From Candidatus Shapirobacteria bacterium (GTDB lineage: Bacteria; Patescibacteriota; Microgenomatia; UBA12405): a stretch of DNA of 64,000 nucleotides. The DNA lies in contig JBAZTV010000001.1 in the NCBI GenBank assembly GCA_041661765.1, forward strand, positions 231,983-295,982, given 5' to 3'. Shown here one piece after another: positions 3,474 through 32,831 of this stretch. A model generated the notes under the pieces. The model did not search any database. It was not told the origin of the DNA and saw only the letters and a list, made by a program, of their open reading frames with translations. The position numbers were made by a program, and so were the translations under genes. Position 1 is the stretch's first letter. Every line of letters starts with the position of its first letter.

Positions 3474-3791
3474 TTGCCAATATATGACATAATATATGTT
3501 ATGACCACAGTGAACATCTCTATTACCGATAATCAGGCAAAATTTATCGACAAACTCGCCAAAGATTACAATTTTGACAACCGCAGTGAATTAATTCGTA
3601 GTTTCATTCGTCTCTTTCAATTTCGCCCACAATTAATTGACGAAGTTATCGGTTTTCCATTCTCGCTTCCAGACACCAACAGTCGTTCAAAAGTTGTTGA
3701 TAGCTTCAAAGAAACCGGTAAATATTCACCAGAGTTCTTAAAAGATTTAGAAAATGGTTTAAAAAATAGTAAATTTTTTAGCCAAAAATGA
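3474..3791 (+). CDS. ParD-like ribbon-helix-helix antitoxin. The real start is possibly the ATG at 3501.
   Basis: 'ISITDNQAKFIDKLAKDYNFDNRSELIRSFIRL' matches the ParD/RHH pattern. The stop overlaps the start of the next ORF (ATGA). Confidence 0.55.
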   Translation: MPIYDIIYVMTTVNISITDNQAKFIDKLAKDYNFDNRSELIRSFIRLFQFRPQLIDEVIGFPFSLPDTNSRSKVVDSFKETGKYSPEFLKDLENGLKNSKFFSQK

Positions 3792-4036
3792 ATCTAGATT
3801 TTTTAAATAAAGATCAAAAGAAATATTTATCTAGTCATAATCTAATTCATAAATTTGAAAAACAATACGATTTATTTTTAAAAAATCCACATCATCCAAG
3901 TTTAAATTTGGAAATATTAGAACCAAAAAACCGAGGTATCCATAGTTTTAGAATTGACAGAAAATATCGAGTTATTTTTATTTTTAATCCAGATCAAAAT
4001 ATTGAAATACTATTTATAACCAATCATTACAAGTAA
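3788..4036 (+). CDS. ParE/RelE-family type II toxin
   Basis: 82 aa. 'IHSFRIDRKYRVIFIFNPDQNIEILFITNHYK' is typical of RelE/ParE toxins. Overlaps the upstream antitoxin gene by 4 nt. Confidence 0.6.
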   Translation: MNLDFLNKDQKKYLSSHNLIHKFEKQYDLFLKNPHHPSLNLEILEPKNRGIHSFRIDRKYRVIFIFNPDQNIEILFITNHYK

Positions 4037-4673: not shown

Positions 4674-4745
4674 TCGCCCTTAGCTCAACGGTAGAGCAAT
4701 CCGCTGTTAACGGAAAGGTTTTTGGTTCGAATCCAGAAGGGCGAG
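4674..4745 (+). tRNA. tRNA-Asn (anticodon GTT)
   Basis: Hand-folded cloverleaf: 7-bp acceptor TCGCCCT/AGGGCGA, D arm GCTC-AACGGTA-GAGC, anticodon loop CTGTTAA, T arm TTTGG-TTCGAAT-CCAGA, discriminator G. No CCA is encoded. Confidence 0.75.
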
Positions 4746-4784
4746 CGTAATATCACACATATATTTCACATGTATAATTAGATT

Positions 4785-5285
4785 ATGAATTATGACCCAA
4801 TCAATTTTTCTAAAAATTTAGTCAAAGGAAGAATCGCTGAAACATTATTTGAACAGATGCTTCGTGATGCTGAATGTTTTACAATTTTATCTTTTGGTTA
4901 TGAAAACATTATTCCAGAACTTGCTCATCGCCAAGATGATATAAGAGCACAAGAAACAATGGAAATAATCAGACGAGCTCCTGATTTTGCTGTAATAAAT
5001 AATGAGACACATGATGTTTATTTAATAGAAGTTAAATATTTAATGAAACCTGCTGCTAGTACAATTCTTAAAGATGCAGAAAGAATGTTTCAATCTTGGA
5101 AACCATCTTATCTATTTTTAGCAACACCAGAAGGTTTTTATTTTGATAAGGCCAGTGACATTGTTAAAAATAATGGAATTATAAAACCGTTTTATCATCC
5201 ACAAATTTCAAAAGAATTGCAATTAAAATATACTCAACTACTAAATGAGTTTATTGTTCCAACTGAAACGACACCTAAAAACTAA
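4785..5285 (+). CDS. Hypothetical protein with a PD-(D/E)xK nuclease-like signature
   Basis: 'APDFAVINNETHDVYLIEVKY' gives a PD...ExK arrangement, with an upstream acidic residue in 'RIAETLFEQ'. Confidence 0.4.
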   Translation: MNYDPINFSKNLVKGRIAETLFEQMLRDAECFTILSFGYENIIPELAHRQDDIRAQETMEIIRRAPDFAVINNETHDVYLIEVKYLMKPAASTILKDAERMFQSWKPSYLFLATPEGFYFDKASDIVKNNGIIKPFYHPQISKELQLKYTQLLNEFIVPTETTPKN

Positions 5286-5520
5286 TATTGTGATTAGTCA
5301 AAAACTCAAAACAATTTCAAAAAGTGAAGAAGAAACAAGAGAATATTTTAAGCGAAAATATAATTGGGATATAGCAGAGGCTGATTATCAAGAAGTTTCT
5401 CAGTCCATGTATTACTTAGGTAAAGCGATTTATAGAAGTTTACAATTAGAGTACAAAAGTGACTCAGTCAATATTAAAAATAAGAAAATCATTAGGCAAG
5501 ATAGCAGAAAATTTGTCTGA
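5245..5520 (+). CDS. Hypothetical small protein. The start is uncertain; it overlaps its neighbours.
   Basis: ORF only. A possible GTG start at 5291 lies after the upstream stop. Confidence 0.25.
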   Translation: MSLLFQLKRHLKTNIVISQKLKTISKSEEETREYFKRKYNWDIAEADYQEVSQSMYYLGKAIYRSLQLEYKSDSVNIKNKKIIRQDSRKFV

Positions 5521-5656
5521 CGATGAAGTTTTAAAATTAGATACCAAAATGGAGATTTTTGCCAATCTTATTTTAGATAAAATATTATCCTTAACGCCGG
5601 AAGAGAGAAAAATACTTAATGATAAAATTAGAAAAGGAAATTCAAGTTATATTTAA
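5459..5656 (+). CDS. Hypothetical small protein
   Basis: ORF only. Overlaps the previous ORF by about 60 nt. Confidence 0.2.
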   Translation: MTQSILKIRKSLGKIAENLSDDEVLKLDTKMEIFANLILDKILSLTPEERKILNDKIRKGNSSYI

Positions 5657-5674
5657 AATTAAATTAAAAATAGA

Positions 5675-6487
5675 ATGACATCAAATAACGATGAATTATC
5701 AAAAACTTTAAGATGGAGAGTAAAATCTCTTAAAATTTTTGTTAAAGCATTCAAACGATATATCGAAGTCGCATCACCTTTTGTTACTGAGGATAATACT
5801 GAGCTGAATAAGGAATATAAAGATATACAAAGATTTCTAAGCTATTTTGAAGAGCAAATAGAAAATGGTGATGGTGATTATGATTTTGTTGATTTAATAT
5901 TTTTAGGTAAAAGTTGGGGTAAAATTTATGATCTGATGTGGAAATATAATGGTTGGAAAAAACAACTATTTGATGAAAGAGAAAGAATAATCGTTATTAA
6001 AGCAGCTCTGGAAGGTGACAAAAAACATCTTGAAGAAATAAATGAAATACTAAATAATGATTGTTGGTCATTATTTAACAGATGTCCAATTTTAATTGAT
6101 AGTTTTTATAATGTTATTCATCCGAAGACAGATGATCCAATTATTCAACAAGTCTTTAATATTGAAACTTTAAATGGTGTGCTTGCTGGTACAAATAATG
6201 GAATAATTACTCAAAACAATGAAAGTAAAAAAGTATTAAAAGCTATACAAGAAATAACAAATATTCTTGAAAAAGAATATCTTGAAAATAAAAATACACC
6301 GGAGATACTTTCAAATTTACAAGAGATTCAAGGTGAATTACTTAAACCATTTCCTGATAATTTAAAAATGAAAAAAGCTGCTGATGGACTACAGACGGTT
6401 GCAAATATTACTCAGATTGGTTCATTCGCGGTTGCAATCGCACCCCATTTGCAGACAATACAACAATTTATCAGTAAATTTATTTAA
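5675..6487 (+). CDS. Hypothetical protein (270 aa), island cargo
   Basis: Long ORF with no recognisable motif. Its stop overlaps the stop of the convergent recombinase gene. Confidence 0.45.
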   Translation: MTSNNDELSKTLRWRVKSLKIFVKAFKRYIEVASPFVTEDNTELNKEYKDIQRFLSYFEEQIENGDGDYDFVDLIFLGKSWGKIYDLMWKYNGWKKQLFDERERIIVIKAALEGDKKHLEEINEILNNDCWSLFNRCPILIDSFYNVIHPKTDDPIIQQVFNIETLNGVLAGTNNGIITQNNESKKVLKAIQEITNILEKEYLENKNTPEILSNLQEIQGELLKPFPDNLKMKKAADGLQTVANITQIGSFAVAIAPHLQTIQQFISKFI

Positions 6488-8205
6488 TAAATCCCGCATA
6501 CAGCTATTCTTATTTGTTCCAAAGCAGGGAGCATAGACAATTTTTTATCGCACAAACCATCATATTTATTGGTATCTTCCATTAAATCTTTAGGTTCGAA
6601 CACCACATATTTCTTATCATCAGAGTTTTTAAATTCAACAATGTACTGAAGTGGTTTTGTAAGGTTGATTCCAATGATTTTGTCTTTCAATGTTAGGTTC
6701 GAAGATAAAGAAAGCAATATTTGTTTTCTCGTCTCTAAGTCACCATTTTTAAACCAATATTTGGCATAACAAGCAAAGTTAAAAGTTCGTTCTGATAATT
6801 CAACCCATTGATTGACTCGATCACCAGTTTGATTCATCTTTTCTTCCAATTCTTTTTTCTCTTTCATTAATGTTTCTTTTTGACTCTTAAATTCATCGTC
6901 AGACAATAATTCATTGTCGGTGTTTTGTGGCGATATTTTTAATTTAACTAGGTTATCGATTCTATTAACAACTTTTTTATAGTCTTCTTGGAAAGAATCA
7001 ATTGAGGCATTACGGCTGACTTTTTCTAAATCATAAAGTCTGTTTAATCTTTTGATCGCCCAATTTTTAAATCTCTCTGAAATTTGAATTTTTCCCAAAT
7101 ATTCTTCAACTTGTTCCATTAATTTTTCTTCAGTGACACACCCTTGAGTACAGTGAGGGTTTTTACTTTTAGCACAGTGGTAGTAAGTGTAGTGAAGTAA
7201 TTTTGGATTAACCATATTTTCAATCAAAGTTTCACATTTTGGACAAGCTTTTTTATTCATTGAGGCAAATTTCTGTTTACAAACAGGGCAGATTATTTGA
7301 AACTTTTCTTCAGCAGTAATGGCACCGCCACATTCATTGCATTTAATTAACCCAGATGCAAAAAATTCTCTTGTGTGTGGTCGAGGACTACAACCTTTTC
7401 CGAGCAATATTTGTACTCTATCAAAGTCTTGTCGTGTAATCATCGGTTCATGTTTACCTTTATAAATTTTTCCAGCATATTCAAACTCTCCAAAATAAAA
7501 AGTATCTTCAAAGATTTTATAAATTGTTGATCGTGGCATTGGCTTACCACCATATCGTCCATTTTCAGGAGATCGATATCCCATTTCAGTATTAATATAT
7601 CTTTGAATCTTTGGTGGTGACCATGCACCAGTCAGCATTAACTCCCAAGCCTTTTTTATGATTTGGAATCGAATTGGATCAGACTGAATTTTTTTATTTC
7701 CTTTACTAGAATAGCGATCATTCATATAGCCTGGTTTTGCCCCACTTGGTAACCACCCCATTTCAGCCTTAGTTTTTAATCCACGTTTTACATTTCTTGA
7801 GAGGTCGAGAATAAATTGATTTGCCATACCTCCCTCTACATAAAGCATCAAATTATCGATCGTAGTATATGATTTTTGAGGAGTGACAATAACTACTTCT
7901 TTATCATTTACTGCCCATGTTATTGCACCCATATCGATTGGGTTACGATATAGACGATCTAACTTCCAACAAACAATTCCATTAATTTCTCCAGTTTGTA
8001 CTCTAGCCATCATTTTGGCAAATATTGGTCGCCCTGGTGCTTTTGCGGATTTTGATTCAGTGTAAATGTCTTCTTTCTCAACCTTAATGCCACTTCTTTT
8101 TGCCAATTCTTTAAGTTCATTTAATTGGCTATCAATAGAAAGCACCTGTTTATCTTCAGTGTCAGTCGATTTTCTAGCATAAATGACATATTTCATATTT
8201 TCCAT
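6484..8205 (-). CDS. Large serine recombinase (integrase)
   Basis: N-terminal resolvase catalytic domain 'YVIYARKSTDTEDKQVLSIDSQ'. 573 aa, with a recombinase domain and Cys-rich zinc-ribbon region (CNECGG...CPVC...CPKC). Confidence 0.85.
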   Translation of the reverse strand: MENMKYVIYARKSTDTEDKQVLSIDSQLNELKELAKRSGIKVEKEDIYTESKSAKAPGRPIFAKMMARVQTGEINGIVCWKLDRLYRNPIDMGAITWAVNDKEVVIVTPQKSYTTIDNLMLYVEGGMANQFILDLSRNVKRGLKTKAEMGWLPSGAKPGYMNDRYSSKGNKKIQSDPIRFQIIKKAWELMLTGAWSPPKIQRYINTEMGYRSPENGRYGGKPMPRSTIYKIFEDTFYFGEFEYAGKIYKGKHEPMITRQDFDRVQILLGKGCSPRPHTREFFASGLIKCNECGGAITAEEKFQIICPVCKQKFASMNKKACPKCETLIENMVNPKLLHYTYYHCAKSKNPHCTQGCVTEEKLMEQVEEYLGKIQISERFKNWAIKRLNRLYDLEKVSRNASIDSFQEDYKKVVNRIDNLVKLKISPQNTDNELLSDDEFKSQKETLMKEKKELEEKMNQTGDRVNQWVELSERTFNFACYAKYWFKNGDLETRKQILLSLSSNLTLKDKIIGINLTKPLQYIVEFKNSDDKKYVVFEPKDLMEDTNKYDGLCDKKLSMLPALEQIRIAVCGIY

Positions 8206-8270
8206 AATTGTATATTTATCCTATCTTTAGCCTAAATATATTATATCGGATACCCAAATATAATCCAAGG

Positions 8271-8786
8271 TTAAAAAGGTACCTCCTCATCAGAAAAACT
8301 ACTATTATCATTAGTTTTGTTAGATTCCTTTAAATTACTATTAATATCAACATTAGAAGAACTATTAGAAAAACTATTTTGGGTTTGTTTACTTGCACCA
8401 TTAGAATTATTGTTTTCGCCATTAAAATTCCATCTATCTACTTCAGAAAAATCAATCCAATCATCGTCAGCATTTTTAACAGAAACAACTTTTATTTCGT
8501 AAAAACTTTCTTCTTTTTTTAAAATTAACTCTTTTTTTAATAATTTATTCATTACTCTTGAAACTTTCGTTATTGACCATCGGGTCATTCTAGAAAGGTC
8601 AGCAAGAGTAACCTCTACATGTTTATAATTTTTATGTCTTTTATCCCAGTCATAAAGTGCATTTAATAAATCCCATAATCTATATTCAGAATCATCTAAC
8701 TTAAATTTAAGTGCAGTCAAATGTCTGTCTCTCCTCAAAAATTGGAACCCCTTTTCTAGTCGATAAGCCTTACTACTTGTCTTCAT
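8271..8786 (-). CDS. Hypothetical protein. The N-terminal ~100 aa may be a winged-helix DNA-binding domain; the C-terminal tail is Asn/Ser-rich low complexity.
   Basis: ORF only. Composition and predicted helices. Confidence 0.4.
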   Translation of the reverse strand: MKTSSKAYRLEKGFQFLRRDRHLTALKFKLDDSEYRLWDLLNALYDWDKRHKNYKHVEVTLADLSRMTRWSITKVSRVMNKLLKKELILKKEESFYEIKVVSVKNADDDWIDFSEVDRWNFNGENNNSNGASKQTQNSFSNSSSNVDINSNLKESNKTNDNSSFSDEEVPF

Positions 8787-9007
8787 TTTCCTTTTTTGGC
8801 ATTGCTTTATAAATCACTTGAAAAAGATTTAAAAGCCTTTGCCCTTGTTCTTCTGCCACATCATCGCCAATTTCCTCGCCAAACTCAGCAAGCCATATTT
8901 CTTTGAATTCGTTGAGGTCTTGTTGGTTTAACATTTCGACAGTTAATTAATAACTGTCATATTATGAATCTGTGGAAAGTTACGAGATATGAACAAGTGA
9001 ACAGGTG

Positions 9008-9736
9008 TTACATGTCCACAGCGAGAAGTTTTTTATATCTTTGAATTGATCGTTTTACCCCTTCAACACCAGACACACTCGTTAAAGGATTATTTAATTT
9101 CATCTGTTGTTGTTTTTCTTTTTCTGATAATTCTGATAATGCAATTTGGGCATAACTTTCGCCTTTTACATTTCGCCAATACCAATGTCGATCACGTTTA
9201 ATATTAGTTATATTTTTTGGGTCTTTTAACTCCTTATATATCGGACTCCACAACTCATCTGGCACCAACTCAAACATTTTCTTTTTATAAGTTTCAAACT
9301 TTTTATCAAACAATTCGTTTAATTCTTTTTTGGTCGTAAACTGATCTAAAATAATTGTCATAGTAGTACCAAGAGGATATTTAAACCATTTTTGACTATC
9401 ATAAATCTTGAATTTCACTGGTTTATAATCTTTTAAAGTCACTTTATTTGATAACGTTGCGGCTAACATTACGGATTCAAAACTGGCTGGTCTAGAATAC
9501 TTTGTAGCCAAAAAAGTAATATCGTCTCGTAGTTGTTCAAATTCCTCAGTTGTCGTTTGTTGTAGCCGTTCTGGTGAAGCCAAATAACTATTAAATATAG
9601 TCCTAAGTTCCATTATTTCTTTCAAACAATCAAGTCTGTCTAATACTGTCACTAATTGAAAATATCGATGATTTTCAAATCGATCATCGACTTCTATTGG
9701 GTCAAGATTCATTGATATTAATTTTTCTGTCTTCAC
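9008..9736 (-). CDS. Hypothetical protein (242 aa)
   Basis: ORF with no recognisable motif. Confidence 0.4.
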   Translation of the reverse strand: MKTEKLISMNLDPIEVDDRFENHRYFQLVTVLDRLDCLKEIMELRTIFNSYLASPERLQQTTTEEFEQLRDDITFLATKYSRPASFESVMLAATLSNKVTLKDYKPVKFKIYDSQKWFKYPLGTTMTIILDQFTTKKELNELFDKKFETYKKKMFELVPDELWSPIYKELKDPKNITNIKRDRHWYWRNVKGESYAQIALSELSEKEKQQQMKLNNPLTSVSGVEGVKRSIQRYKKLLAVDM

Positions 9737-9810
9737 TACACAATTTTAGCCTATGATGACACGACATTGGAGGTATAATCAAATCATCTAATAATATTAA
9801 TGTTTGAAAA

Positions 9811-11463
9811 ATGAGCAATAAGATTTATATAAAGCAAGTTAATATTGAAAACTTTAAATGTTTTAAAGGTAATTTTAATTTACCTTTAAATGAAGGCCTT
9901 AATATTATTGTCGGCGACAATGAGGCAGGTAAATCTACAATTTTAGAAGCAATTCATTTGGCATTAACAGGATTATTAAATGGAAGATATTTAAAAAACG
10001 AATTAACACAGTATCTGTTTAACCACGAAGTAGTCGATGAATATATTAAAAAAGCAAATACGGGAGATAACCCACCACTGCCATATATTTTAATCGAAGT
10101 TATTATTGCAGGCGAGGATTTATCAAAATTTGAAGGAGATAACAATTTTGAAGGGAAAAAAGAGTGTGGTATTTCTTTCAAGATTGGATTTGATGATAAA
10201 TATAAACCAGAGTATGAAGAATTTATTAAAAATGGAGACATTAAAACTATTCCTATTGAATATTATGATATTTTTTGGACTTCCTGTGCTCGTGATAATA
10301 TCACCGCAAGGAGCATACCAATTAAGTCTGCACTAATAGATTCTTCAAGTAATCATTATGAAAACGGCTCTGATATTTATATTTCAAGAATTATTAAAGA
10401 TAATTTAGAAGAAAAAGATAAAGTAAATATATCTCAAGCATACAGAAGAATGGTGGATAGCTTTATGTGTGATAATTCCGTAAAAGAAATTAGTAAAAAA
10501 ATTAAAACTGATGCAAATATTTCCACAAAAAGAGTTGAATTGTCGGTTGGTTTGTCGTCAAAAAACAGTTGGGAAAGTAGTTTAATGACTTACTTTGATG
10601 ACATACCATTTCACTACATTGGGAAAGGGGAGCAATGTATCGTAAAGACAAAATTAGCTCTAAGTCATAAAAAATCACAAGAAGCAAATATTCTTCTTCT
10701 TGAAGAACCAGAAAATCATCTTTCACATACAAAACTTAATCAATTAATTAATGAAATCAAGGAAAGTAATAGTGAAAAACAAATAATAGTTTCCACTCAT
10801 AGTAGTTTTGTGGCAAATAAATTAGGATTAGGAAATTTAATTCTATTAAATAATAAAAAAACAGTAAGATTAAATAATTTAAATGATGATACTAAAATTT
10901 TTTTTGAAAAACTCTCAGGATATGACACACTTCGTCTTATACTTTGTCAAAAGGCTATTTTAGTGGAAGGAGATTCTGATGAATTAATAATTCAAAAAGC
11001 ATTTTTAATTCAAAATGGTATGTTACCAATTGAATGCAACAAAGGAATAGATGTTATCTCTGTCGGAACAACATTTTTGAGATTTTTAGAAATTGCAAAA
11101 GAAATTGATAAATCAGTAGTAGTGGTGACAGATAATGATGGAAAACCAGATGGTGTAAAAAATAAATATACAGATTATCTCGGTGAAAATGCCAAAGATT
11201 CTATCAAAATTTGTTTCGATGAGGATGTTGATACTGGAGTATTGGAGATTGATGGAAAAGCTTTTAATTACAACACCCTTGAACCAAAAATGTTAAAAGC
11301 TAACAGCTTAGATTCTCTTAATAAAATTTTTGGAACAAATTACCAAAATACTGATGATTTACACAAATATATGCATGCGAAAAAAACTGAATGTGCTCTG
11401 AAAATATTTGAAACCAAAGAAATTGTAAAATTTCCAAAATATATTCAAGACGCAATAGCATAG
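9811..11463 (+). CDS. gajA: OLD-family ATP-dependent nuclease: N-terminal ABC-type ATPase plus C-terminal Toprim. GajA-like.
   Basis: Walker A 'GDNEAGKST' with the leading 'IENFKCF' strand typical of AAA_21/OLD proteins. C-terminal Toprim 'ILVEGDSDELIIQKAF' and 'VVVTDNDGKPD'. Confidence 0.7.
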   Translation: MSNKIYIKQVNIENFKCFKGNFNLPLNEGLNIIVGDNEAGKSTILEAIHLALTGLLNGRYLKNELTQYLFNHEVVDEYIKKANTGDNPPLPYILIEVIIAGEDLSKFEGDNNFEGKKECGISFKIGFDDKYKPEYEEFIKNGDIKTIPIEYYDIFWTSCARDNITARSIPIKSALIDSSSNHYENGSDIYISRIIKDNLEEKDKVNISQAYRRMVDSFMCDNSVKEISKKIKTDANISTKRVELSVGLSSKNSWESSLMTYFDDIPFHYIGKGEQCIVKTKLALSHKKSQEANILLLEEPENHLSHTKLNQLINEIKESNSEKQIIVSTHSSFVANKLGLGNLILLNNKKTVRLNNLNDDTKIFFEKLSGYDTLRLILCQKAILVEGDSDELIIQKAFLIQNGMLPIECNKGIDVISVGTTFLRFLEIAKEIDKSVVVVTDNDGKPDGVKNKYTDYLGENAKDSIKICFDEDVDTGVLEIDGKAFNYNTLEPKMLKANSLDSLNKIFGTNYQNTDDLHKYMHAKKTECALKIFETKEIVKFPKYIQDAIA

Positions 11464-11465
11464 AT

Positions 11466-12656
11466 ATGCACGGTAATAATAAATTAATTATTGCTGTTGC
11501 CGGCTCTGGTAAAACAACCTTTCTTATAAATGAAGCACTTAAGAAGAAAGATGGCCACATACTTATAACTACTTATACAATTGCAAATTGTGAAGAAATA
11601 AGAAAAAAAATTATTAAAAAAAGTGGTTATATTCCTCAAAATATAGAAATACAAACTTGGTTTTCACTTCTAATTCAACATGGAGTAAAGCCATTCCAGT
11701 CACATTTTGATAAAGGATTATCAGACTTTAAAATAAAAGGACTACTTTTAACTAATACAAAATCTGCAGTTAAATATACGAACTCAAAAGGGATACCAGT
11801 CTGTTATGAAGAATCTGAAATAAAAAAACATTTTTTTACACCAAACAATAGAATCTATTCTGATAAACTCGCAAAGTTTGTTGTCGGTGGTGGAGATAGA
11901 TTTAGAAAAACAAAAGAAAGAAAATTTTTTGTCGATCTTATGATTAATCGGCTATCAAAAATTTATTCAGATATTTATATTGATGAAGTTCAAGATCTGG
12001 CTGGGTATGATTTGATTTTTTTACAATACCTTTTTAAAAGTTCAATCAATGTTTTGATGGTTTGTGACCCAAGGCAAGTAACATATTTAACTCATCATGA
12101 AACAAAGTTTAAACAATATAAAGATGGAAAAATTAAAGAATTTATCAAAACTGATAACAAAAAATATTTTAAGGATGAAGATATTGACGAAACTTCCCTA
12201 AGGGTTTCACATAGAAATAATAATGCTATCTGTAAATTGTCTTCAAAATTATTTCCAGAATACGTTTATTCTGAACCTTGTACTTGTTTTGAATGTAGAA
12301 AATCTGACAGTGAAGATCACATTGGAGTTTTTATAGTCAAAAAATGTGATGTCAAAAAATATCTTTCCACTTATAATCCAATGCAGTTAAGAGACAAAAA
12401 AACAGTATTGGTTAATGAAAAATTTGATGTTGCAAATTTTGGCGAATCCAAAGGATTAACTTTTAATAGAGTTCTTATTTATCCAACAAAAGAATTTATC
12501 AAATGGTTAAAAGACGATAAGTATAAGTTAGCCCCAACAAGTAGATCGAAATTCTACGTCGCCATAACAAGAGCAATTTACAGTGTCGGAATTATTTGTG
12601 ATGAAAAAATAGAGATTGCAGATGTGAATGAATTTATAAATACATTACCAAATTAA
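11466..12656 (+). CDS. gajB: UvrD-like helicase, GajB-like
   Basis: Motif I 'AVAGSGKTT', motif II 'IDEVQDLAG', C-terminal 'FYVAITRA' (motif VI-like). It sits 2 nt after the OLD-family gene. Confidence 0.7.
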   Translation: MHGNNKLIIAVAGSGKTTFLINEALKKKDGHILITTYTIANCEEIRKKIIKKSGYIPQNIEIQTWFSLLIQHGVKPFQSHFDKGLSDFKIKGLLLTNTKSAVKYTNSKGIPVCYEESEIKKHFFTPNNRIYSDKLAKFVVGGGDRFRKTKERKFFVDLMINRLSKIYSDIYIDEVQDLAGYDLIFLQYLFKSSINVLMVCDPRQVTYLTHHETKFKQYKDGKIKEFIKTDNKKYFKDEDIDETSLRVSHRNNNAICKLSSKLFPEYVYSEPCTCFECRKSDSEDHIGVFIVKKCDVKKYLSTYNPMQLRDKKTVLVNEKFDVANFGESKGLTFNRVLIYPTKEFIKWLKDDKYKLAPTSRSKFYVAITRAIYSVGIICDEKIEIADVNEFINTLPN

Positions 12657-12665
12657 TAGTTCTTT

Positions 12666-12890
12666 CTATAATCTAAATAACTCCGAAACATCAACTTTCA
12701 ATTTTTTAGCAATCTTTAAGAGTACTTCCATTGATGGATTTATTCTTCCTTGTTCAATGTGGCCGATATGAGTTCTACTTAAACCCAAAGCTTCAGCAAA
12801 TTCTTCCTGACTCTTGTAGCCAATTTGTTTTCTTAGTTTTTGAATAGTCTTTCCCAACCTTTTAGTAACCTTTCTCTTTGTTATAACCAT
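12666..12890 (-). CDS. XRE-family helix-turn-helix transcriptional regulator
   Basis: 74 aa. 'LRKQIGYKSQEEFAEALGLSRTHIGHIEQGRINPS' is a Cro/C1-type HTH. Confidence 0.75.
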   Translation of the reverse strand: MVITKRKVTKRLGKTIQKLRKQIGYKSQEEFAEALGLSRTHIGHIEQGRINPSMEVLLKIAKKLKVDVSELFRL

Positions 12891-13007
12891 GCTTGGATTA
12901 TGTCTAGCTATGAGGAGAAACTCTACTAGCTTAAAGCGAGCAATTAGGTATAAATAATGTATAATCTCGTTTAGAAGTCCTATTACAAATTTTTTAATAT
13001 AAACAAT

Positions 13008-13286
13008 ATGACCAACCCTTATTGGGACAAGATTAAAAAAACTGTGTCAGAGATTGATAATCTTGTTAATAACAATTCAAAGAAAGACATCCAATTTAAG
13101 AAACCAACAAAAATATTTTTTGGCAAAAAATGTCTCAAGTGTAATAGTCGTAATGTCAAAACTATAAAAGCTGGATTTATGAAACATCTAATGCAACAAA
13201 ATGTTGCCATTTGGGTACCAGGAGCCAAAATATCAAAACCTTTAAATGTTTGCCGTGATTGTGGTTTCTCTTGGGAAGACCGTTAA
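13008..13286 (+). CDS. Small zinc-ribbon protein (CxxC...CxxC)
   Basis: 'CLKCNSRN' and 'CRDCGF' Cys pairs. Confidence 0.4.
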   Translation: MTNPYWDKIKKTVSEIDNLVNNNSKKDIQFKKPTKIFFGKKCLKCNSRNVKTIKAGFMKHLMQQNVAIWVPGAKISKPLNVCRDCGFSWEDR

Positions 13287-13287
13287 T

Positions 13288-13305
13288 TGTCTCGTAGCCG
13301 AGACA
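13288..13305 (+). terminator. Hairpin TGTCTCG-TAGC-CGAGACA immediately after the stop of the zinc-ribbon gene
   Basis: Perfect 7-bp stem with a 4-nt loop. There is no strong T tract, so terminator function is uncertain. Confidence 0.3.
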
Positions 13306-13535
13306 GATGAAATAGTAAGTACCAATTTATATACTATTGTATAGGACTATATAATATATAATGGAAACATAGGTAATAACTCTCAGGAAGTCGTTTGAAA
13401 AATAAAGCAGACTCAATTATAGATTTAACTATTAAAACTTATTCTACGAGGCTACATGAAGCCACAATAGTGTTCTTAATTAAATACCAAGAATAGTTTT
13501 GTTGATTATCATTAGTTTCACTTGGAAAGATAAAC

Positions 13536-13559
13536 ATTTGTCACGCAGGCGTGACAAAT
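13536..13559. promoter_or_regulatory. Perfect 11-bp inverted repeat ATTTGTCACGC-AG-GCGTGACAAAT, 25 nt upstream of the methyltransferase start
   Basis: Read directly from the sequence. Its position suggests an operator or transcript-end structure for the restriction-modification module. Confidence 0.4.
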
Positions 13560-13583
13560 TAAAAACATGTTCAACTTGGGTCC

Positions 13584-14924
13584 TTGTTTCCCAAACAAAA
13601 CACAAATATAATTAAGAAGATGAATAGTAAATTTACTTTTATAGATCTGTTTGCTGGTATCGGTGGATTTAGAATCGCATTAGAAAGATGTGGTGGTAAA
13701 TGTTTAGGTTTTTCTGAAATAGAACCCAAAGCTATTGAGACCTATAAAGAAAATTTCATAAAAAAGAATGACAATGAGTGGGAACTTGGCGATATACAAA
13801 AAATAAATAAATTACCTACACCAGTTGATGTAATTGTCGGTGGTGTGCCGTGTCAGTCTTGGTCTGTCGCTGGGAAAATGAGAGGATTTGAAGACCCACG
13901 CGGTAAATTATGGCACGATGCTATAAGATTAGTGAAATTAAACAGACCAAAAGTTTTTGTATTTGAAAATGTCAAAGGATTAGCCGATCCAAGAAATAAA
14001 GAGAATTTAAATCTTATAGTTAATAGTTTTAAAGAATTAGGTTATACCATACCAACTCCTCAACTTTTAAATTCATATGATTTTGGTCTTCCACAAAATA
14101 GAGAAAGAATATTTATTGTTGGTTTTAACAATGATGTCATTTCTGATTTAAATTTTTCTTATCCCAAAAAACGTAATATTGAATTTAGATTATCAGATTT
14201 TCTAGATGGTCTTGAACAAAAAACCGTTATAAAGAAAAAAATAAATCCAAAAGAATTATTTGACGGTAAAATACCTCTATCAAGAAATAAATTTCAAGTA
14301 AATGATGAATTAAATGATTTTTTTGTCTTTTGTGACGCTAGGAATGGTCACAGTACTATTCACTCTTGGGACCTTATTCCAACTAGTAATAGAGAAAAAG
14401 AAATTTGTTATGCCATAATGAGAAATCGTAGAAAAAAAGTTTATGGGGAAAAAGATGGTAACCCATTAGGATTTAAGGATATTGATGACCTAGTTTCTAA
14501 CCTTAAAAAAGAAGAATTAGAAGGGTTAGTTCTTAAAAGAATACTTAGAAAAGTAGAAGGTGGAAAATTTGACTTGGTAAACTCAAAAAATTCTTCTGGT
14601 ATTAATGGAATCTATCGGGTATTTTTACCAAATTCAAAAATATTTTCTACTATCACTGCCACTGGAACTCGTGATCATGTCGCTACTGTCACAATAAGTG
14701 GTCGCACCCCAGAAGAATATCGACGAAATTTCATTAAAAAAGTGTATGAAAAAGGGAATTTTAGACAAATTACTCCAAGAGAGGCCGGATTATTACAGGG
14801 GTTTGGACATAATTTTAAACTTAACAGACAAGATAGAATCTCCCTTAAACAATTTGGTAATGCTGTTTCAGTAAATGTTGTCTATGCTCTAATGGAATCT
14901 ATAATTAAGACTGGTATTTTTTGA
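13584..14924 (+). CDS. DNA (cytosine-5)-methyltransferase
   Basis: Motif I 'FIDLFAGIGGF', motif IV 'GGVPCQSWS', motif VI 'ENVKGL'. Confidence 0.9.
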   Translation: MFPKQNTNIIKKMNSKFTFIDLFAGIGGFRIALERCGGKCLGFSEIEPKAIETYKENFIKKNDNEWELGDIQKINKLPTPVDVIVGGVPCQSWSVAGKMRGFEDPRGKLWHDAIRLVKLNRPKVFVFENVKGLADPRNKENLNLIVNSFKELGYTIPTPQLLNSYDFGLPQNRERIFIVGFNNDVISDLNFSYPKKRNIEFRLSDFLDGLEQKTVIKKKINPKELFDGKIPLSRNKFQVNDELNDFFVFCDARNGHSTIHSWDLIPTSNREKEICYAIMRNRRKKVYGEKDGNPLGFKDIDDLVSNLKKEELEGLVLKRILRKVEGGKFDLVNSKNSSGINGIYRVFLPNSKIFSTITATGTRDHVATVTISGRTPEEYRRNFIKKVYEKGNFRQITPREAGLLQGFGHNFKLNRQDRISLKQFGNAVSVNVVYALMESIIKTGIF

Positions 14925-14946
14925 ATAAATAAGCCATAATCAGGAT

Positions 14947-15669
14947 GTGATAAGCGAAAAACAAAAAAGTGAATTTTTATTGCGTTTAGGTAAATGGGTA
15001 ACCGATGATTTTGCCAAAAAATATGAGAATAATATTAGAAAATGTTCAAAATTATCAGAGTTTAAGGTTAATCCGCTACTTTTACCATTTCTTTCTCTCA
15101 CTTTTACTGGGAATGTTGATCCAGAAAGTTTAGCCAAAGTCCTAGTTTACCCACGAGTACTCAGCACTTCAATTACCACTACATTTGGAACAGGATTACA
15201 GAGATTTATAACTGATGCTTGGAATGAAATCTGTGGAGGATCTGGTTTATCTGGAATCGATATAGAATTTACAGATCAGATTGAAGGTGGTAAAAAATAT
15301 GCTCAAATTAAACTTGGGCCAAATACCATTAATAAAGATGATGTGAAGACTATTACTGATCATTTTAAGGGTGCACTTAATTTAAGTAGGACAAATAATC
15401 TTAAAATTAAACACGAAGACTTAGTTGTTGGTGTTGTTTATGGTAAAGAATCGGAGAAGAACGCCAACCTTAAAAAATTAGATACAGAATACACAGTCTT
15501 AATAGGTCAAGATTTTTGGTATCACTTAACTGGTGACAAGGATTTTTATAATGAAATGAAGAAAACAATATTTACCTCGTCAGAAAAAATATGTCTAAAA
15601 GATGATATTGAAAAAGCTATTAAAGAACTATCAAAATCTATTAACAAAGACAGAATTTTATCAGCTTAA
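14947..15669 (+). CDS. Candidate cognate restriction endonuclease (uncharacterised 240-aa protein directly downstream of the methyltransferase)
   Basis: Position only. A possible D...ExK arrangement in 'GIDIEF...YAQIKLG'. The start codon is uncertain (GTG). Confidence 0.35.
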   Translation: MISEKQKSEFLLRLGKWVTDDFAKKYENNIRKCSKLSEFKVNPLLLPFLSLTFTGNVDPESLAKVLVYPRVLSTSITTTFGTGLQRFITDAWNEICGGSGLSGIDIEFTDQIEGGKKYAQIKLGPNTINKDDVKTITDHFKGALNLSRTNNLKIKHEDLVVGVVYGKESEKNANLKKLDTEYTVLIGQDFWYHLTGDKDFYNEMKKTIFTSSEKICLKDDIEKAIKELSKSINKDRILSA

Positions 15670-15673
15670 TTTA

Positions 15674-15750
15674 GTGTCACGACACAATATTTTATTTTTT
15701 TATTTTTATTAATTGTCTCAGCGTCGAGACAATTTTCACGCCAGCGTGAA
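15674..15750. repeat. Cluster of three GC hairpins: GTGTC-AC-GACAC followed by a T-rich run, TTGTCTC-AGCGTC-GAGACAA, and TTCACGC-CA-GCGTGAA
   Basis: Stems read from the sequence. Similar in style to the hairpins at 13288 and 13536. Located in a ~390-bp non-coding gap at the distal end of the island. Confidence 0.4.
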
Positions 15751-16059
15751 GAATAGACTATTAAAGTTTTCAAGGTTTTTCCCATTTCCAAAGAAGTGAC
15801 TACGATACAAAGTGGCGAATCAAAAAACAGAATTTCCGAACAGGGGGTGTTTCAAAGTTTTCGGCTTTGCAATAAACAGACTAACAGTATTCAAGTTTAA
15901 CCATAGATTTATAAACATATTATTACTATCTATAACAAACTAATACATATCTAAAAATTAGCTACAAATTAGCAATTAATTCCAGTCATGTTAAACGTTG
16001 GTAATGGTTCATAGTGAGTCATATTGTAGGTTCGGATATCGTCTATTACGCAGAGCACA

Positions 16060-16461
16060 ATGAATTTTACAGAATGGTTTTCTATACTATCAATAATTGT
16101 TGGAATTATACTCTTTGGTTGGGATATTTATTTACTTGGTGAATCAAAAAAACAGAAGGCAGTTTTTGACAAAGAAAAAGAAATTCATAAATCTCAAGTA
16201 AAAATATGGCAACATTATGCAAATGGACTCAGCAATTCTCTATTAAATTTAGGATTTTCTGCAGAAAGAGAACAAAATTCAAAATTAGAACAGGCGATTA
16301 AATCATTACAGACAGTATCATTTTATCTTTATAAATCATTAAATGAAGAAAGATTATTTTCCGAAGAAGAAATAAAAAAACAACAACTAGAAACAGAAAG
16401 TCAGTATAAACAATTTTTTAATAAACCTAAAGTAAGTACAGAAATTCCACTAGACAAGTAA
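16060..16461 (+). CDS. Hypothetical membrane-anchored protein
   Basis: Hydrophobic N-terminal segment, then a charged coiled-coil-like region. Confidence 0.35.
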   Translation: MNFTEWFSILSIIVGIILFGWDIYLLGESKKQKAVFDKEKEIHKSQVKIWQHYANGLSNSLLNLGFSAEREQNSKLEQAIKSLQTVSFYLYKSLNEERLFSEEEIKKQQLETESQYKQFFNKPKVSTEIPLDK

Positions 16462-16514
16462 GATTTTTCTTCACATTTGGTCTAAGACGACTAGTATTTT
16501 GGTATAATCAAAGT

Positions 16515-16820
16515 ATGTCCAAGAATCCTATTATTAACGCCTTCAGCGCTTCAGTGTATATCATCCTCGTTGTCACTATTATGACCTTTGTGACAAAACC
16601 TTTACAAAATAAACCCGACACCTTTTTCGCTCCAATCACATTTTTATCACTGCTTACTCTTTCTGTCGTTGTAATGGCATTTCTATTTTTTTACCAACCA
16701 CTGCAGCTTTTTATTGAAGGAAAGAAAAAAGAAGCGGTAAACCTTTTTGTCAAAACTGTTGGTATATTCGCAGCATTTACGGCTGTGATTTTGATACTGC
16801 TTTTTTCTGGTCTAATCTAG
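16515..16820 (+). CDS. Hypothetical small membrane protein
   Basis: Three predicted transmembrane segments. Confidence 0.35.
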   Translation: MSKNPIINAFSASVYIILVVTIMTFVTKPLQNKPDTFFAPITFLSLLTLSVVVMAFLFFYQPLQLFIEGKKKEAVNLFVKTVGIFAAFTAVILILLFSGLI

Positions 16821-16836
16821 ATTAGGGTAATAAAAA

Positions 16837-17286
16837 TTATTTACCTAACCTTTCCAATATTTGTTTCATTTGACCAATCTCTGATTGCTGAGAGGGAATA
16901 ATTTTTTGACACAATTGTTTAATTTCAGGATCATCAAAAGATGCGTTCTTACACATTAATATTGCTCCAGAATGATGAGGAATCATAGATTTTAAAAATT
17001 GCTTATTATCTATTGCAGTCTGTTTTCTAATAAAAATAAAAAATAATATAAATATAGAAATACCGACACACATTAAAACATTTTTAGTTAAGTTTTTATA
17101 CATAACACCCATAAATAAAATTTCCAAGATCAACATCGGAGCAGTCATAATTCCGGCCATATATAATTGATTTAAATTGGGGTATATATCAACAAATTTA
17201 TAAACCATAACATACATTAGTATGTACATAGCCAAAAAATGGAGAAATACCATCAGTGATAAACCGACAAAAGAAGTATGTTTCAT
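16837..17286 (-). CDS. DUF305-like membrane protein (metal-resistance-associated family)
   Basis: 'MIPHHSGAILMC' resembles the DUF305 MxxHHxxAIxM motif. N-terminal transmembrane segments. Confidence 0.45.
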   Translation of the reverse strand: MKHTSFVGLSLMVFLHFLAMYILMYVMVYKFVDIYPNLNQLYMAGIMTAPMLILEILFMGVMYKNLTKNVLMCVGISIFILFFIFIRKQTAIDNKQFLKSMIPHHSGAILMCKNASFDDPEIKQLCQKIIPSQQSEIGQMKQILERLGK

Positions 17287-17288
17287 AA

Positions 17289-17498
17289 TTATCGTTTTAA
17301 TTTTTTATTAGTTTTAACCCCAAATAATTTATAGACTAAGCAAAATCCAGTTAATCCAGTAAAGATCGCTAATATCCCAATTACCAAAGCTACTATTTGT
17401 AGTGTTCCAGTAAATACAAATAAAGCCAGCCATAAGACCACCACTCCTACTACCAATCTTATTTTTTTATCCGTTTTACTTTCATTTTGTTGAAACAT
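17289..17498 (-). CDS. YgaP-like / DUF2892 small transmembrane protein
   Basis: 69 aa with two transmembrane helices and 'GFCLVYKLFG', typical of DUF2892. Confidence 0.5.
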   Translation of the reverse strand: MFQQNESKTDKKIRLVVGVVVLWLALFVFTGTLQIVALVIGILAIFTGLTGFCLVYKLFGVKTNKKLKR

Positions 17499-17670
17499 AT
17501 TTTTATTTAATTAATAATTTTTATCATCTACTTTTAATGATTCCATAAAATTATTAAATTTTCTTCAACATTTTTAAAAACAGTTCTGCTCAACGAGCCA
17601 ATCAAACCTCACCCATATCTTTAAGGATTTTTTTATAGAAATATTTTTTATAAAGAATTTAGATTATACT

Positions 17671-18042
17671 TTGTATATGAACAAACAATTTTTCAAAGAT
17701 GCTCTAGATTGGGGATTTTTACTGTGGTTATCTGGTTATGTTCTCGGCATTATTCTTTTTATGATTATTCCCAAACCATATCTCGGTTGGATTATTATGC
17801 CAATTGGTAGTGCGTTTACACTTTGGGTTTTATTTAAAAAAATAAAAAATAATTCTCTTAAATATTATTTTTTATTAGCTTTTAATTGGGCATTAATCGC
17901 TATCATTTGTGATTATTTTTTTCTGGTAAAACTTTTTAAATCCACCGACTATTATTCATTTCATATTTATCTCTATTATTTCCTAACTTTTGTCTTTCCG
18001 TTATCTGTTGGTTTGTACAAGAACATTGGTAAAAAAAGATAA
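17671..18042 (+). CDS. Hypothetical membrane protein
   Basis: Four predicted transmembrane segments. Confidence 0.35.
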   Translation: MYMNKQFFKDALDWGFLLWLSGYVLGIILFMIIPKPYLGWIIMPIGSAFTLWVLFKKIKNNSLKYYFLLAFNWALIAIICDYFFLVKLFKSTDYYSFHIYLYYFLTFVFPLSVGLYKNIGKKR

Positions 18043-18300
18043 TTGTATTATCATAAAGAAATGAAAACAGAAAATAAAAAAACAGAATGTTGTTGTGAAG
18101 AAAAAATCGTTGTTAAAAAAAATAAGTGCCATTGTACTAGTGGTGGTTCTAACGCAATTTATGGGTTGGGAGTTATTGGTGCTCTCTTTTATTTTCTAAA
18201 TACTGCTACCAGTTTTAGTTTAGTTTTAATTGGAATTGGAAAATCAATTTTTTGGCCAGCTATTTTGATGTTCAAACTACTGACTTATCTTCAGATGTAA
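18043..18300 (+). CDS. Cys-rich small membrane protein (CCC...CHC)
   Basis: 'TECCCEEK...KCHCTSGG', then two transmembrane segments. Sits upstream of the ArsR gene. Confidence 0.35.
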   Translation: MYYHKEMKTENKKTECCCEEKIVVKKNKCHCTSGGSNAIYGLGVIGALFYFLNTATSFSLVLIGIGKSIFWPAILMFKLLTYLQM

Positions 18301-23772: not shown

Positions 23773-23824
23773 AAAAGTTCTCTAGCTTTATTTTGTTTCT
23801 TTTTATCACTATAATTTCAGTTAG

Positions 23825-25966: not shown

Positions 25967-25984
25967 AATTTAATTAATATTTGT

Positions 25985-26374
25985 TTGATACAATCGCGAA
26001 ATATGAAAAAAAAGATTAATAAATTTATATATTGGACACCAAGAATTTTAGGAATAATCTTTATTCTTTTTTTAATGATGTTTTCATTAGATATTTTCGA
26101 GCCGGGACTAACTGTTTGGCAGATAACCATTGGTTTGTTTATGCACAACATCCCCGCATTAATTTTATTAATTTTTTTAATAATTTCATGGAAACATGAA
26201 ATAGTTGGAGGGATTGTTTTTATTTTAGCCGGATTATTTTACATTTTTTTATTAGCTACTAGTTCTCATTTTGAATGGTATATGTTGATTTGGTCACTAA
26301 CAATTTCTGGTCCTGCGTTTTTAATTGGAACTTTATTTTTCTGTAATTGGTTTAAAAAGAAGAATTCCAAATAA
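25985..26374 (+). CDS. Hypothetical membrane protein
   Basis: Four transmembrane segments. Confidence 0.35.
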   Translation: MIQSRNMKKKINKFIYWTPRILGIIFILFLMMFSLDIFEPGLTVWQITIGLFMHNIPALILLIFLIISWKHEIVGGIVFILAGLFYIFLLATSSHFEWYMLIWSLTISGPAFLIGTLFFCNWFKKKNSK

Positions 26375-31907: not shown

Positions 31908-32831
31908 ATGGCGAAAATAAAAAAAATTTTAATAATCGCCATTGTTATCTGTTTCACCGTTTTGTCACTAGCTGGAATTTTAAAATTCCATGAATTATTA
32001 AAACCCTTTAATATTCCATATAACAATTTACCAATGTCGCAAATTTCAGTTTTACATGATTGGGCAGGATTAACTCTTATTTTTTTAATTTTAATCCACC
32101 TAATTGTTCAAAGGTCTTGGTTTACTGGTCAATTTAAAAAAAATAAAAAAGGCTCTACAAAAATTTTATTTTTAATACTAATAGGAATTGGAACTTTTTT
32201 GTTAGCAAGTTTTTTGATTAATAAATATTTATTCCAACAACCGGAAAGTATAAAAAAATTAGAAAGTATAGAAATCAAAGATTATCAGGGCGAAAATTTA
32301 TCGTCCATATCTGATTTTAGAGAAAATTCCATTAAAGGTCCGCAAAATATCGACATTAAAAATTATGTTTTAAATATTGATGGATTGGTCGATAAAAAAT
32401 TATCTCTAACTTATGATCAAGTTTTAAACCACAACCAATATACTAAAATAGTCACTCTTAATTGTGTTGAAGGCTGGTCAGCTAAAATTTTATGGCAAGG
32501 AGTTTTAATAAAAGATCTATTAACTGAAGCGGGGATAAAGCCGGGAAGTAATACTGTTATTTTTTATGCCGTTGATGGTTATTCTTCTTCTCTTTCTCTA
32601 GATTATGTCACTAATAATAATATTACTTTAGCCTACAAAATAAATGGAGTTGTTATTCCTCCAGAAAGAGGATTCCCATTTCAAGTGGTAGCTGAAGATA
32701 AATGGGGCTACAAATGGGTTAAATGGGTAACCAAAATAGAAGTTTCTAATGACCCAAATTATAAGGGGTATTGGGAAAATGCTGGTTATAACCAAAATGG
32801 AGATTTAAAGGGTTCAAAATATGAAAATTAA
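31908..32831 (+). CDS. Membrane-anchored molybdopterin-binding oxidoreductase (sulfite-oxidase/MsrP-like)
   Basis: 'TLNCVEGWSAKILWQGVLIKDL' and 'ERGFPFQVVAEDKWGYKWVKW'. Confidence 0.6.
   Translation: MAKIKKILIIAIVICFTVLSLAGILKFHELLKPFNIPYNNLPMSQISVLHDWAGLTLIFLILIHLIVQRSWFTGQFKKNKKGSTKILFLILIGIGTFLLASFLINKYLFQQPESIKKLESIEIKDYQGENLSSISDFRENSIKGPQNIDIKNYVLNIDGLVDKKLSLTYDQVLNHNQYTKIVTLNCVEGWSAKILWQGVLIKDLLTEAGIKPGSNTVIFYAVDGYSSSLSLDYVTNNNITLAYKINGVVIPPERGFPFQVVAEDKWGYKWVKWVTKIEVSNDPNYKGYWENAGYNQNGDLKGSKYEN

Follow-up and report, generated by a model that had tools for sequence, protein, structure and literature searches.

We have analysed a 64,000-nucleotide stretch of DNA from a metagenome-assembled genome (MAG) of Candidatus Shapirobacteria, a member of the candidate phyla radiation (CPR; Patescibacteria), a group of bacteria whose genomes are tiny, in which few mobile elements are known and genetic tools are almost lacking. 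We refer to the whole stretch as the window, and coordinates are window positions unless another locus is named. The one tRNA found by ARAGORN and Rfam in the whole 64 kb is a tRNA-Asn(GTT), and it is followed by about 11 kb of accessory genes that include a large serine recombinase (LSR), a Gabija pair, and a restriction-modification (R-M) pair. The region is probably a composite integrated mobile island of about 11 kb with two parts: E1, an LSR element that appears to span about 6506–16056 (9.5 kb), and E2, a 1.76 kb segment at 4747–6505 that has no recombinase and that we infer to be a later insert at this tRNA end or what is left of such an insert. A preliminary description of this DNA had placed an island with these accessory genes next to tRNA-Asn, and both its coordinates and its gene identities are borne out; the gap at 15.7–16.06 kb, which it called hairpin-rich, is indeed non-coding and contains several short GC-rich hairpins.

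Gene content of the tRNA-Asn locus

The features of the region are listed below, with the strand (+ or −) where one is assigned.

4674–4746, +: tRNA-Asn(GTT), intact (ARAGORN; Rfam 63.5 bits)
4785–5285: 166-aa open reading frame (ORF) of E2 with a PD..ExK-like motif; no Pfam match
5245–5520: 91-aa ORF of E2; no Pfam match
5459–5656: 65-aa ORF of E2; no family match
5675–6487: 270-aa ORF of E2; no Pfam match, weak PADLOC PDC-M14B match (E=5e-8)
6484–8205, −: LSR, 573 aa, with Resolvase, Recombinase and Zn-ribbon domains
6506–6532, +: beta-type junction site, ATTCTTATTTGTTCCAAAGCAGGGAGC; a pseudo-tRNA 3′ end within the last LSR codons
8271–8786, −: 171-aa winged-helix-turn-helix (wHTH) protein, weakly resembling phage replication-initiator O / DnaD
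8773–8934, −: 53-aa acidic helical protein, its ORF overlooked in the preliminary description
9008–9736, −: 242-aa DNA-binding protein with a C-terminal sigma-region-4/DeoR-type helix-turn-helix (HTH); first gene of the conserved core module
9811–11463, +: GajA, OLD-family ABC ATPase with TOPRIM nuclease (PADLOC PDLC00102, E=9e-221, full length)
11466–12656, +: GajB, short UvrD-like SF1 helicase, 396 aa (PADLOC PDLC00148, E=5e-127, full length)
12666–12890, −: XRE-family HTH regulator (Pfam HTH_3, E=5e-16)
13008–13286, +: 92-aa zinc-ribbon protein, CxxC…CxxC, as seen in its translation
13584–14924, +: type II cytosine-5 (m5C) DNA methyltransferase (PF00145, E=3e-81; PADLOC MTase_II, E=7e-136)
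14947–15669, +: EcoO109I-family type II restriction endonuclease (PF14511 RE_EcoO109I, E=1e-29)
15670–16059: non-coding gap of 390 nt with the GC-rich hairpins
15907–16060: non-coding far end of E1, 73–77% identical in nucleotides to positions 1898–2005 and 532–681 of two related loci (L121 and L122, respectively)
16030–16056: alpha-type junction site, GTTCGGATATCGTCTATTACGCAGAGC; a pseudo-T-arm and an acceptor-like end

The LSR ORF is intact and has the catalytic motif YARKSTD at residues 9–15. It matches PF00239 (E=3e-22) and PF07508 (E=3e-8) in Pfam, with a Zn_ribbon_recom match of 19 bits that lies under its cut-off, and its NCBIfam matches to XisF, CcrB, and CcrC are weak; by domain architecture and catalytic motif the product is a large serine recombinase. 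Searches with the E2 ORFs against Pfam, PHROG, NCBIfam, and the PDB gave no matches, and PDB sequence searches with the 166-aa, 270-aa, and 242-aa proteins returned nothing meaningful. An AF2 model of the 242-aa protein built from 66 sequences (a 13-sequence alignment gave a pLDDT of 43) has structural relatives for the HTH only, and a search with this model for structural relatives of the N-terminal part found none. The 171-aa protein matches PHROG 678 (E=4.7e-7) and PHROG 345 (E=1.3e-4).

The OLD-family ATPase and its neighbouring helicase had been described as Gabija-like; the full-length PADLOC matches make them Gabija proper, so that the 'like' falls away. The GajA match spans residues 6–549, with Pfam AAA_15 and OLD-like TOPRIM domains and with the Walker A and TOPRIM acidic motifs present, the Walker A motif of GajB is AGSGKT, and gajB starts 3 nt past the gajA stop on the same strand. 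With both genes of the system recognised in this way, the pair is predicted to be a Gabija phage-defence system. The methyltransferase and restriction endonuclease genes are likewise adjacent but separate, with an intergenic gap of 22 nt, and make up a type II R-M pair.

A recombinase family linked to the 3′ end of tRNA-Asn

A metagenome scan and a protein search for relatives of the recombinase yielded 26 loci and no fewer than 3856 homologues. Only a minority of these homologues have a source name, and those that do are mostly labelled as CPR bacteria, to which the family appears to be confined. Throughout this family the LSR is linked to tRNA-Asn. For example, the LSR frame ends within an opposite-strand tRNA-Asn(GTT) in loci L093, L097, L100, L102, L114, L118, and L120, and the LSR abuts an intron-containing tRNA-Asn in L088, L107, L115, L116, and L122. 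A tRNA acceptor stem and T-arm lie past the LSR stop in 13 of the 20 loci with sequence there, and in 80 of the 120 closest LSR homologues the C-terminus is read from a tRNA 3′ end; such C-termini take the form …LLPR, …MLRG (LRG*), or …LLPRVDSNHEP, which are reverse-complement readings of …GGGGAGC(CA) and GGTTCGAATCC. These patterns point to the 3′ end of the tRNA-Asn gene as the probable attachment site of the family. In its broad form, this proposal would describe a CPR-wide family with thousands of metagenome members, using the T-arm and acceptor stem as attB, with its C-terminus encoded across the tRNA and an attP arm made of a pseudo-tRNA 3′ end lengthened by 5 nt, and forming tandem-stacking elements of 7–12 kb that are the main shuttle of defence cassettes among Microgenomates; we regard the broad form as evenly poised between right and wrong.

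The same tRNA gene without the recombinase is seen in two close relatives, the loci L008 and L009, both labelled as CPR MAGs; L008 is a Candidatus Shapirobacteria MAG with an RpoD 95% identical to that of the window, and for L009 the value is 90%. L008 retains the order rpoD–histidine phosphatase (HisPhos)–tRNA-Asn, and LSR, Gabija, and R-M genes are absent. Its tRNA-Asn is 100% identical to that of the window, and similarity breaks off exactly at the tRNA 3′ end, followed by 8.8 kb of unrelated sequence, with synteny returning only at window position 41.6 kb. The window tRNA ends in …GGGCGAGC|GTAATA, without an encoded CCA, where the unoccupied L008 site reads on as …GAGCCA. L009 has rpoD–NUDIX–HisPhos, a tRNA-Asn that a group I intron splits in two, then 6.7 kb occupied by other genes, and after these thioredoxin–ArsP, corresponding to window position 18.6 kb; the LSR, Gabija, and R-M genes of the island are absent here too. 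Comparison of the sequence downstream of the L008 and L009 tRNAs with the right side of the window gave only noise. The island is thus present or absent among close relatives at a conserved locus, dnaG–rpoD–HisPhos–tRNA-Asn, which answers in spirit the suggestion in the preliminary description that related genomes be searched for an empty site. Four MAGs besides L008, with labels of Shapirobacteria, Parcubacteria, or Gammaproteobacteria, have RpoD proteins 85–90% identical to that of the window, and exact-protein look-ups of the flank genes gave matches from the same strain only.

The slot after the L009 tRNA-Asn has its own contents: positions 10354–15107 encode a small GIY-YIG protein and a protein of 1377 aa in which an SF1 helicase is joined to a REase_MTES_1575/DUF559 nuclease, which is further defence-like cargo at the same hotspot. 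A second side observation concerns the tRNA genes, in that the tRNA-Asn(GTT) genes listed below have a group I intron (RF00028) in the anticodon loop and are missed by ARAGORN; the window tRNA-Asn has no intron.

L009 10014–10232: intron-bearing tRNA-Asn at the syntenic, recombinase-free site
L107 9847–10069, L115 4746–4971, L116 11724–12014, L122 13044–13333, and L088 8765–8857: intron-bearing tRNA-Asn beside a recombinase

Group I introns in Patescibacteria tRNA have already been published, with no mention there of adjacent recombinases (PMC13011429). The partial tRNAs beside the LSRs of L088, L107, and L115 were considered as attP copies and rejected, as they are these intron-containing tRNA-Asn genes.

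The relatives share a gene order, with an HTH protein of about 240 aa, the 53-aa protein, a variable protein of about 120–270 aa (O-like wHTH), the LSR, and tRNA-Asn, usually beside dnaG–rpoD. The 171-aa gene of the window is in the position of the variable gene, and the 53-aa gene has a conserved family-wide position just upstream of the recombinase module, with a homologue in 10 of 13 relative loci and also in L114, L115, L116, L118, and L120–L122. Amino acid identities to the window LSR are 93% for L122, 87% for L114, 75% for L121, 60% for L115, and 56–58% for L120. The XRE gene lies further out in this framework and is present in L114, L120, L121, and L122 (in L114 the gene with its upstream region, to 12965, is 79% identical); it bounds a swappable cargo slot, slot 1, which extends from the XRE gene to the 240-aa gene and is occupied as follows.

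Window: Gabija
L114: AAA_13 ATPase and type ISP enzyme
L121: AAA_13, DUF2130, and a 185-aa ORF
L122: type ISP, SMC-like ATPase, and DUF2130
L120: type III R-M

Beyond the XRE gene, L121 has the same methyltransferase (82% amino acid identity) and endonuclease (81%), with 78% nucleotide identity over 2.1 kb, and in L122 the place of the R-M pair, from about 13513 to 15907 in window positions, is taken by a DUF2726 gene; this makes the R-M pair a second cargo slot of E1. Homologues of the 92-aa zinc-ribbon protein, 39–45% identical, are found at the same position in L121 and L122.

The strongest sign of horizontal transfer is that, between the window and L122, the element proteins are closer to each other (LSR 93%, 242-aa protein 83%, 53-aa protein 78% identical) than the host proteins are (RpoD 84%, DnaG 53%, HisPhos 32%), which points to transfer of E1 as judged from these sequences. 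Its cargo has been swapped, it is absent from close relatives, and it is younger than the split between its hosts. Complete elements are 7–12 kb. Two loci contain tandem pairs of family recombinases (L118 3105–4718 and 10001–11689; L116 3501–4667 and 10001–11689), in which the outer, older LSR ends in a decayed tRNA remnant, and stacking thus happens in this family; the cargo between the tandem LSRs includes Schlafen/AlbA_2, DUF4238, NB-ARC-like ATPase, and LexA-like genes.

Some further observations concern the R-M pair. Similar palindromic hairpins (TTAATTGTCTC-N4/5-GAGACA) at 13283–13305 and 15709–15731 bracket it, a sequence matching them lies upstream of the L121 methyltransferase, and they may be cassette boundaries or shared operators. 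Separately, a scan for promoters and terminators gave no enrichment over shuffles. Counts of RGGNCCY in the window show no depletion (4 observed, 3.1 expected), and GGNCC is mildly depleted (30 observed, 45 expected; z = −2.2). GGCC is strongly under-represented across the whole window (66 observed, 121 expected; z about −5), a hint of HaeIII-type restriction pressure, past or present, that has no connection with the EcoO109I-like enzyme.

Junctions, boundaries and alternative explanations

The preliminary description had raised the possibility of two nested or adjacent elements, and the relatives support it: their LSRs sit directly on tRNA-Asn, which marks the 1.78 kb between tRNA and LSR in the window as a separate insert. 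L114, L122, and other relatives have no E2, and in them the LSR abuts the tRNA. Nucleotide similarity of the window to L114, L121, and L122 runs through the LSR and halts at 6527, which is the start of the tRNA in those relatives where it is readable (L114 and L122), and a remnant of the tRNA end, …AGGGAGC|AT, is found beside the window LSR at 6526–6534. In L114 the T-stem contains the LSR stop; the window has lost this stop, and the frame is extended by 13 codons (P0001 compared with P0002).

Both ends of E1 have putative junctions, marked by pseudo-tRNA-3′-end motifs. The 45-nt block at 6488–6532 recurs in L009 (16938–16964) and at the far end of the L121 element (1412–1438), with different flanking genes; in L121 the block is followed by a terminator and a GIY-YIG gene, and the same two features follow the intact tRNA of L009. 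At the other side, the far end is conserved in L121 and L122 although the neighbouring genes differ, and this three-way conservation stops near 16058, in agreement with the island boundary near 16059 drawn in the preliminary description. The last 27 nt of the far end read GTTCGGAT-N12-GCAGAGC, a hairpin that resembles a T-arm, in which the three sequences differ by compensatory changes, and after it an acceptor-like end; 6506–6532 shares this layout as ATTCTTAT-N12-AGGGAGC. The pattern, which was derived from these same sites, has two matches in the window (6506–6532 and 16030–16056) compared with 0.07 expected. The distance from GTTCGAAT to …GAGC is 22 nt in the tRNA and 27 nt in the element copies. 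The sequence at the 16056 end is …CGCAGAGC, that from 6533 is ATAGACAATTTT, and that from 4747 is GTAATATC.

Comparison of the junctions suggests that the LSR would act by recombination of attP with attB at short sites. In the mechanism we propose, the attP of circular E1 would join the pseudo-tRNA arm (P) to the LSR 3′ end (P′), and the LSR would recombine it with the tRNA-Asn end near …GAGC, leaving the tRNA intact and placing the LSR stop on the tRNA. The last LSR codons would then come from the opposite strand of the acceptor stem and T-arm of the tRNA, and the far end would carry a pseudo-tRNA 3′ end, the two 27-nt motifs being putative attP-type half-sites. The 53-aa and 242-aa proteins, either or both, are candidate accessory or directionality factors, and the O-like protein may help the excised form to replicate. 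The XRE protein probably regulates the element and is less likely to be a dedicated C protein, because it is kept in elements that lack this R-M pair (L114 and L122). Module identities differ between element pairs, which suggests that cargo slots may be exchanged by recombination between related elements. E2 would have inserted at the tRNA 3′ end after E1, pushing the LSR 1.78 kb off the tRNA and removing its stop, with the addition of 13 codons. E1 alone is probably stuck, because its left site would now be P(beta)+P′ and not tRNA+P′, and it is probably grounded unless E2 and E1 move together. We infer the exact crossover, the roles of the motifs, the order of the insertions, and the capacity of E1 to excise from these sequence comparisons.

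Several points weigh against a composite mobile island with this history. Neither an excised circle nor a precise same-species empty site was found, and the island is present in every same-strain contig. The window yielded neither a displaced tRNA fragment nor a classical attL/attR direct repeat; a core repeat of this kind had been put forward in the preliminary description as a check on the island, and the only repeat detected is the 27-nt pseudo-tRNA-3′-end motif, the statistic for which is post hoc and not independent. The right boundary is defined by three sequences only (the window, L121, and L122). The L009 block is 6.7 kb away from the L009 tRNA-Asn, which has retained a terminator of its own, and a simple model needs extra assumptions to account for it. 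Serine-integrase theory disfavours re-use of attL, so that tandem insertion is not readily explained by it. Another proposed check, composition, also went against expectation: GC content (about 0.30 throughout), GC skew, and tetranucleotide profiles have no boundary at the island when 4.7–16 kb is compared with the rest of the window, and the tetranucleotide distance of the island is within 1 SD of the window mean. The absence of long repeats does not refute an island, because serine recombinases need none.

Searches for tRNA-Asn fragments as attR (exact and 3-mismatch matching, Smith-Waterman, and fuzzy remnant searches with three consensus sequences) recovered only the tRNA and the 6.5-kb block, and Rfam at E<=10 over 12.9–18.4 kb and 6.44–6.60 kb gave nothing beyond these two. 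Two other candidates were set aside. A 30/35-nt inverted match between the LSR 3′ end (6535–6570, −) and 32371–32405 (+), which stands far above the window background (z about 7–10), was considered as a distal att arm and judged a probable coincidence, with a pseudo-site as the less likely reading, because it lies inside an intact Oxidored_molyb (MsrP/YedY-like) gene and reflects a common peptide, DGLxDKKLS; the 10-mer AGACAATTTT common to the LSR end and the 15.7-kb gap has an alignment score equal to the window background.

Among the other explanations, the one that survives best is that the locus is a vertically inherited, immobile defence hotspot in which the LSR is domesticated or decaying and variation arises by homologous recombination between flanking core genes. 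The composition of the island equals that of the host, att direct repeats and an excision product were not seen, and the window LSR is off its tRNA site and may be immobile now, all of which would suit such a hotspot. We nevertheless consider an immobile hotspot unlikely. The element core of the window is closer to that of L122 than the two RpoD proteins are to each other, overlap of the LSR gene with the tRNA is seen in a family with thousands of members, tandem arrays occur, and the LSR ORF is intact with its catalytic motif. It is less probable still that the whole region is a single 11.4-kb element, with 4747–6505 as ordinary cargo, the LSR internal, and no second insertion. The arrangement is the same in all same-strain contigs, which come from three samples, E2 has no recombinase of its own, and the 270-aa ORF and the LSR stop share 4 nt, as is common for neighbouring cargo genes; against this, all informative relatives, the ones at 87% and 93% identity among them, have the LSR stop on the tRNA, the tRNA-end remnant is retained beside the LSR, and the E2/E1 junction block recurs in L121 and L009 next to other genes. 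The least probable alternative, a degraded prophage or phage satellite with a serine integrase and with defence genes as superinfection-exclusion cargo, draws on the O-like wHTH, the XRE repressor-like gene, the integrase itself, and a primase-like gene and LexA-like repressor in L118, but capsid, tail, terminase, and lysis genes are absent from the window and about 30 related loci, PHROG matches are limited to the O-like protein with no structural ones, a scan of IMG/VR with the LSR found no relatives, and complete elements reach only 7–12 kb. The composite mobile island is our preferred reading, and we regard it as probable.

The flanks had been described as housekeeping or membrane genes, which is not the whole of it. 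The left flank contains dnaG, rpoD, a 171-aa ORF, the NUDIX gene, and the histidine phosphatase gene, but also the following pair.

3474–4036, +: RHH antitoxin and HigB/RelE-like toxin, between the NUDIX and histidine-phosphatase genes

This toxin-antitoxin pair has no tblastn match in L008 or L009 and is probably a separate small accessory insertion. The stretch at 16060–18300, which may belong to the island or to the chromosome, has genes for 133-aa and 101-aa proteins, DUF305, a YgaP-like protein, and 123-aa and 85-aa proteins, and these too are absent from L009. Two features elsewhere in the window may be recorded: the most deviant tetranucleotide profile is at 22000–26000, beyond the island, and includes a 713-aa ORF (23825–25966) without a Pfam match, and a glmS ribozyme (RF00234, 71 bits) at 34152–34308 (+) lies directly 5′ of a glmS-type gene (SIS and GATase) at 34384–36141.

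Known systems and the meaning of the island

The closest functional analogue of the composite island, as far as the analogy extends, is an array of staphylococcal cassette chromosome (SCC) elements. SCCmec and other SCC elements of staphylococci use the large serine recombinases CcrAB or CcrC to insert at the 3′ end of rlmH/orfX, form tandem cassettes of which some are recombinase-less (psi-SCC), and have modular cargo; each junction has a short repeated copy of the target end, and the target gene is not inactivated. The likeness is in an LSR at the extreme 3′ end of a conserved gene, tandem stacking, recombinase-less parts, and modular cargo. The differences are that the target here is a tRNA and not a protein gene, there is one recombinase and not a CcrA/CcrB pair, the LSR ORF overlaps the target, the cargo is anti-phage defence and not antibiotic resistance, and the host is a CPR bacterium. 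By score the LSR is not a Ccr-family protein, with NCBIfam scores of 57 bits for CcrB (E=1e-15) and 46 bits for CcrC (E=2e-12), in each case against a cut-off of 900, and the resemblance to SCC in a composite, partly recombinase-less layout suggests convergent evolution.

The tyrosine-integrase islands of the type catalogued by Islander and TIGER (P4-like) also resemble the island in tRNA 3′ integration, an integrase beside the tRNA, accessory cargo, and sporadic distribution, but here the recombinase is a serine recombinase and there is no long direct repeat of the 3′ part of the tRNA. tRNA genes are the classic target of tyrosine integrases, and tRNA-adjacent integrative islands are textbook knowledge. 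With the phage LSRs (Listeria A118/LI, Bxb1, phiC31) the window LSR shares Resolvase and Recombinase domains, a zinc ribbon and coiled coil, short sites, and a small accessory protein nearby; it differs in having no phage genes and a tRNA target, and its att sites and crossover are putative. For the LI integrase, Rutherford and colleagues are said to have described in 2013 a 5-bp outward shift of the zinc-ribbon-domain motif between attP and attB half-sites, an offset of the size that separates the 22-nt tRNA half-site from the 27-nt element half-sites here; we take this as a lead and not a result. In the largest survey accessible to us, t(m)RNA genes were the target of 44.5% of the islands with a tyrosine integrase, whereas among 297 islands with a serine integrase just 14 had such a target, a usage that had not been reported before and was unproven (Mageeney et al. 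2020, PMC7192596).

The cargo has close counterparts. As in Gabija of the Bacillus cereus VD045 type, an OLD ATPase-TOPRIM nuclease and a UvrD-like helicase with their catalytic motifs are adjacent and co-oriented, but GajB is short and similarity to solved OLD nucleases is distant (6p74, E=2e-8, N-terminal residues only). As in EcoO109I R-M, a PF14511 endonuclease lies beside a cytosine-5 methyltransferase with an HTH regulator nearby, but the XRE protein is here likelier a regulator of the element than a C protein. Small serine recombinases have been treated as defence markers (PLoS Biol 2026, PMC13552941); the enzyme here differs in being a large serine integrase with a defined tRNA target. 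In themselves, the island and its Gabija and R-M cargo are ordinary and of known families.

What would be new is a CPR family of serine integrases that is specific for tRNA-Asn and has swappable defence slots, of which we found no description in the part of the literature accessible to us. It is unusual that the C-terminal residues of an LSR should be dictated by a tRNA sequence, and that this should hold across a large recombinase family. If the proposal is true, no family of tRNA-targeting serine integrases would have been well supported before this one, and it would offer a ready-made site-specific integration tool, with candidate attP/attB pairs, for CPR bacteria, in which there is almost no genetics. 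Such a family, with a conserved chassis and swappable slots, would also explain how defence systems are exchanged among the minimal genomes of CPR bacteria.

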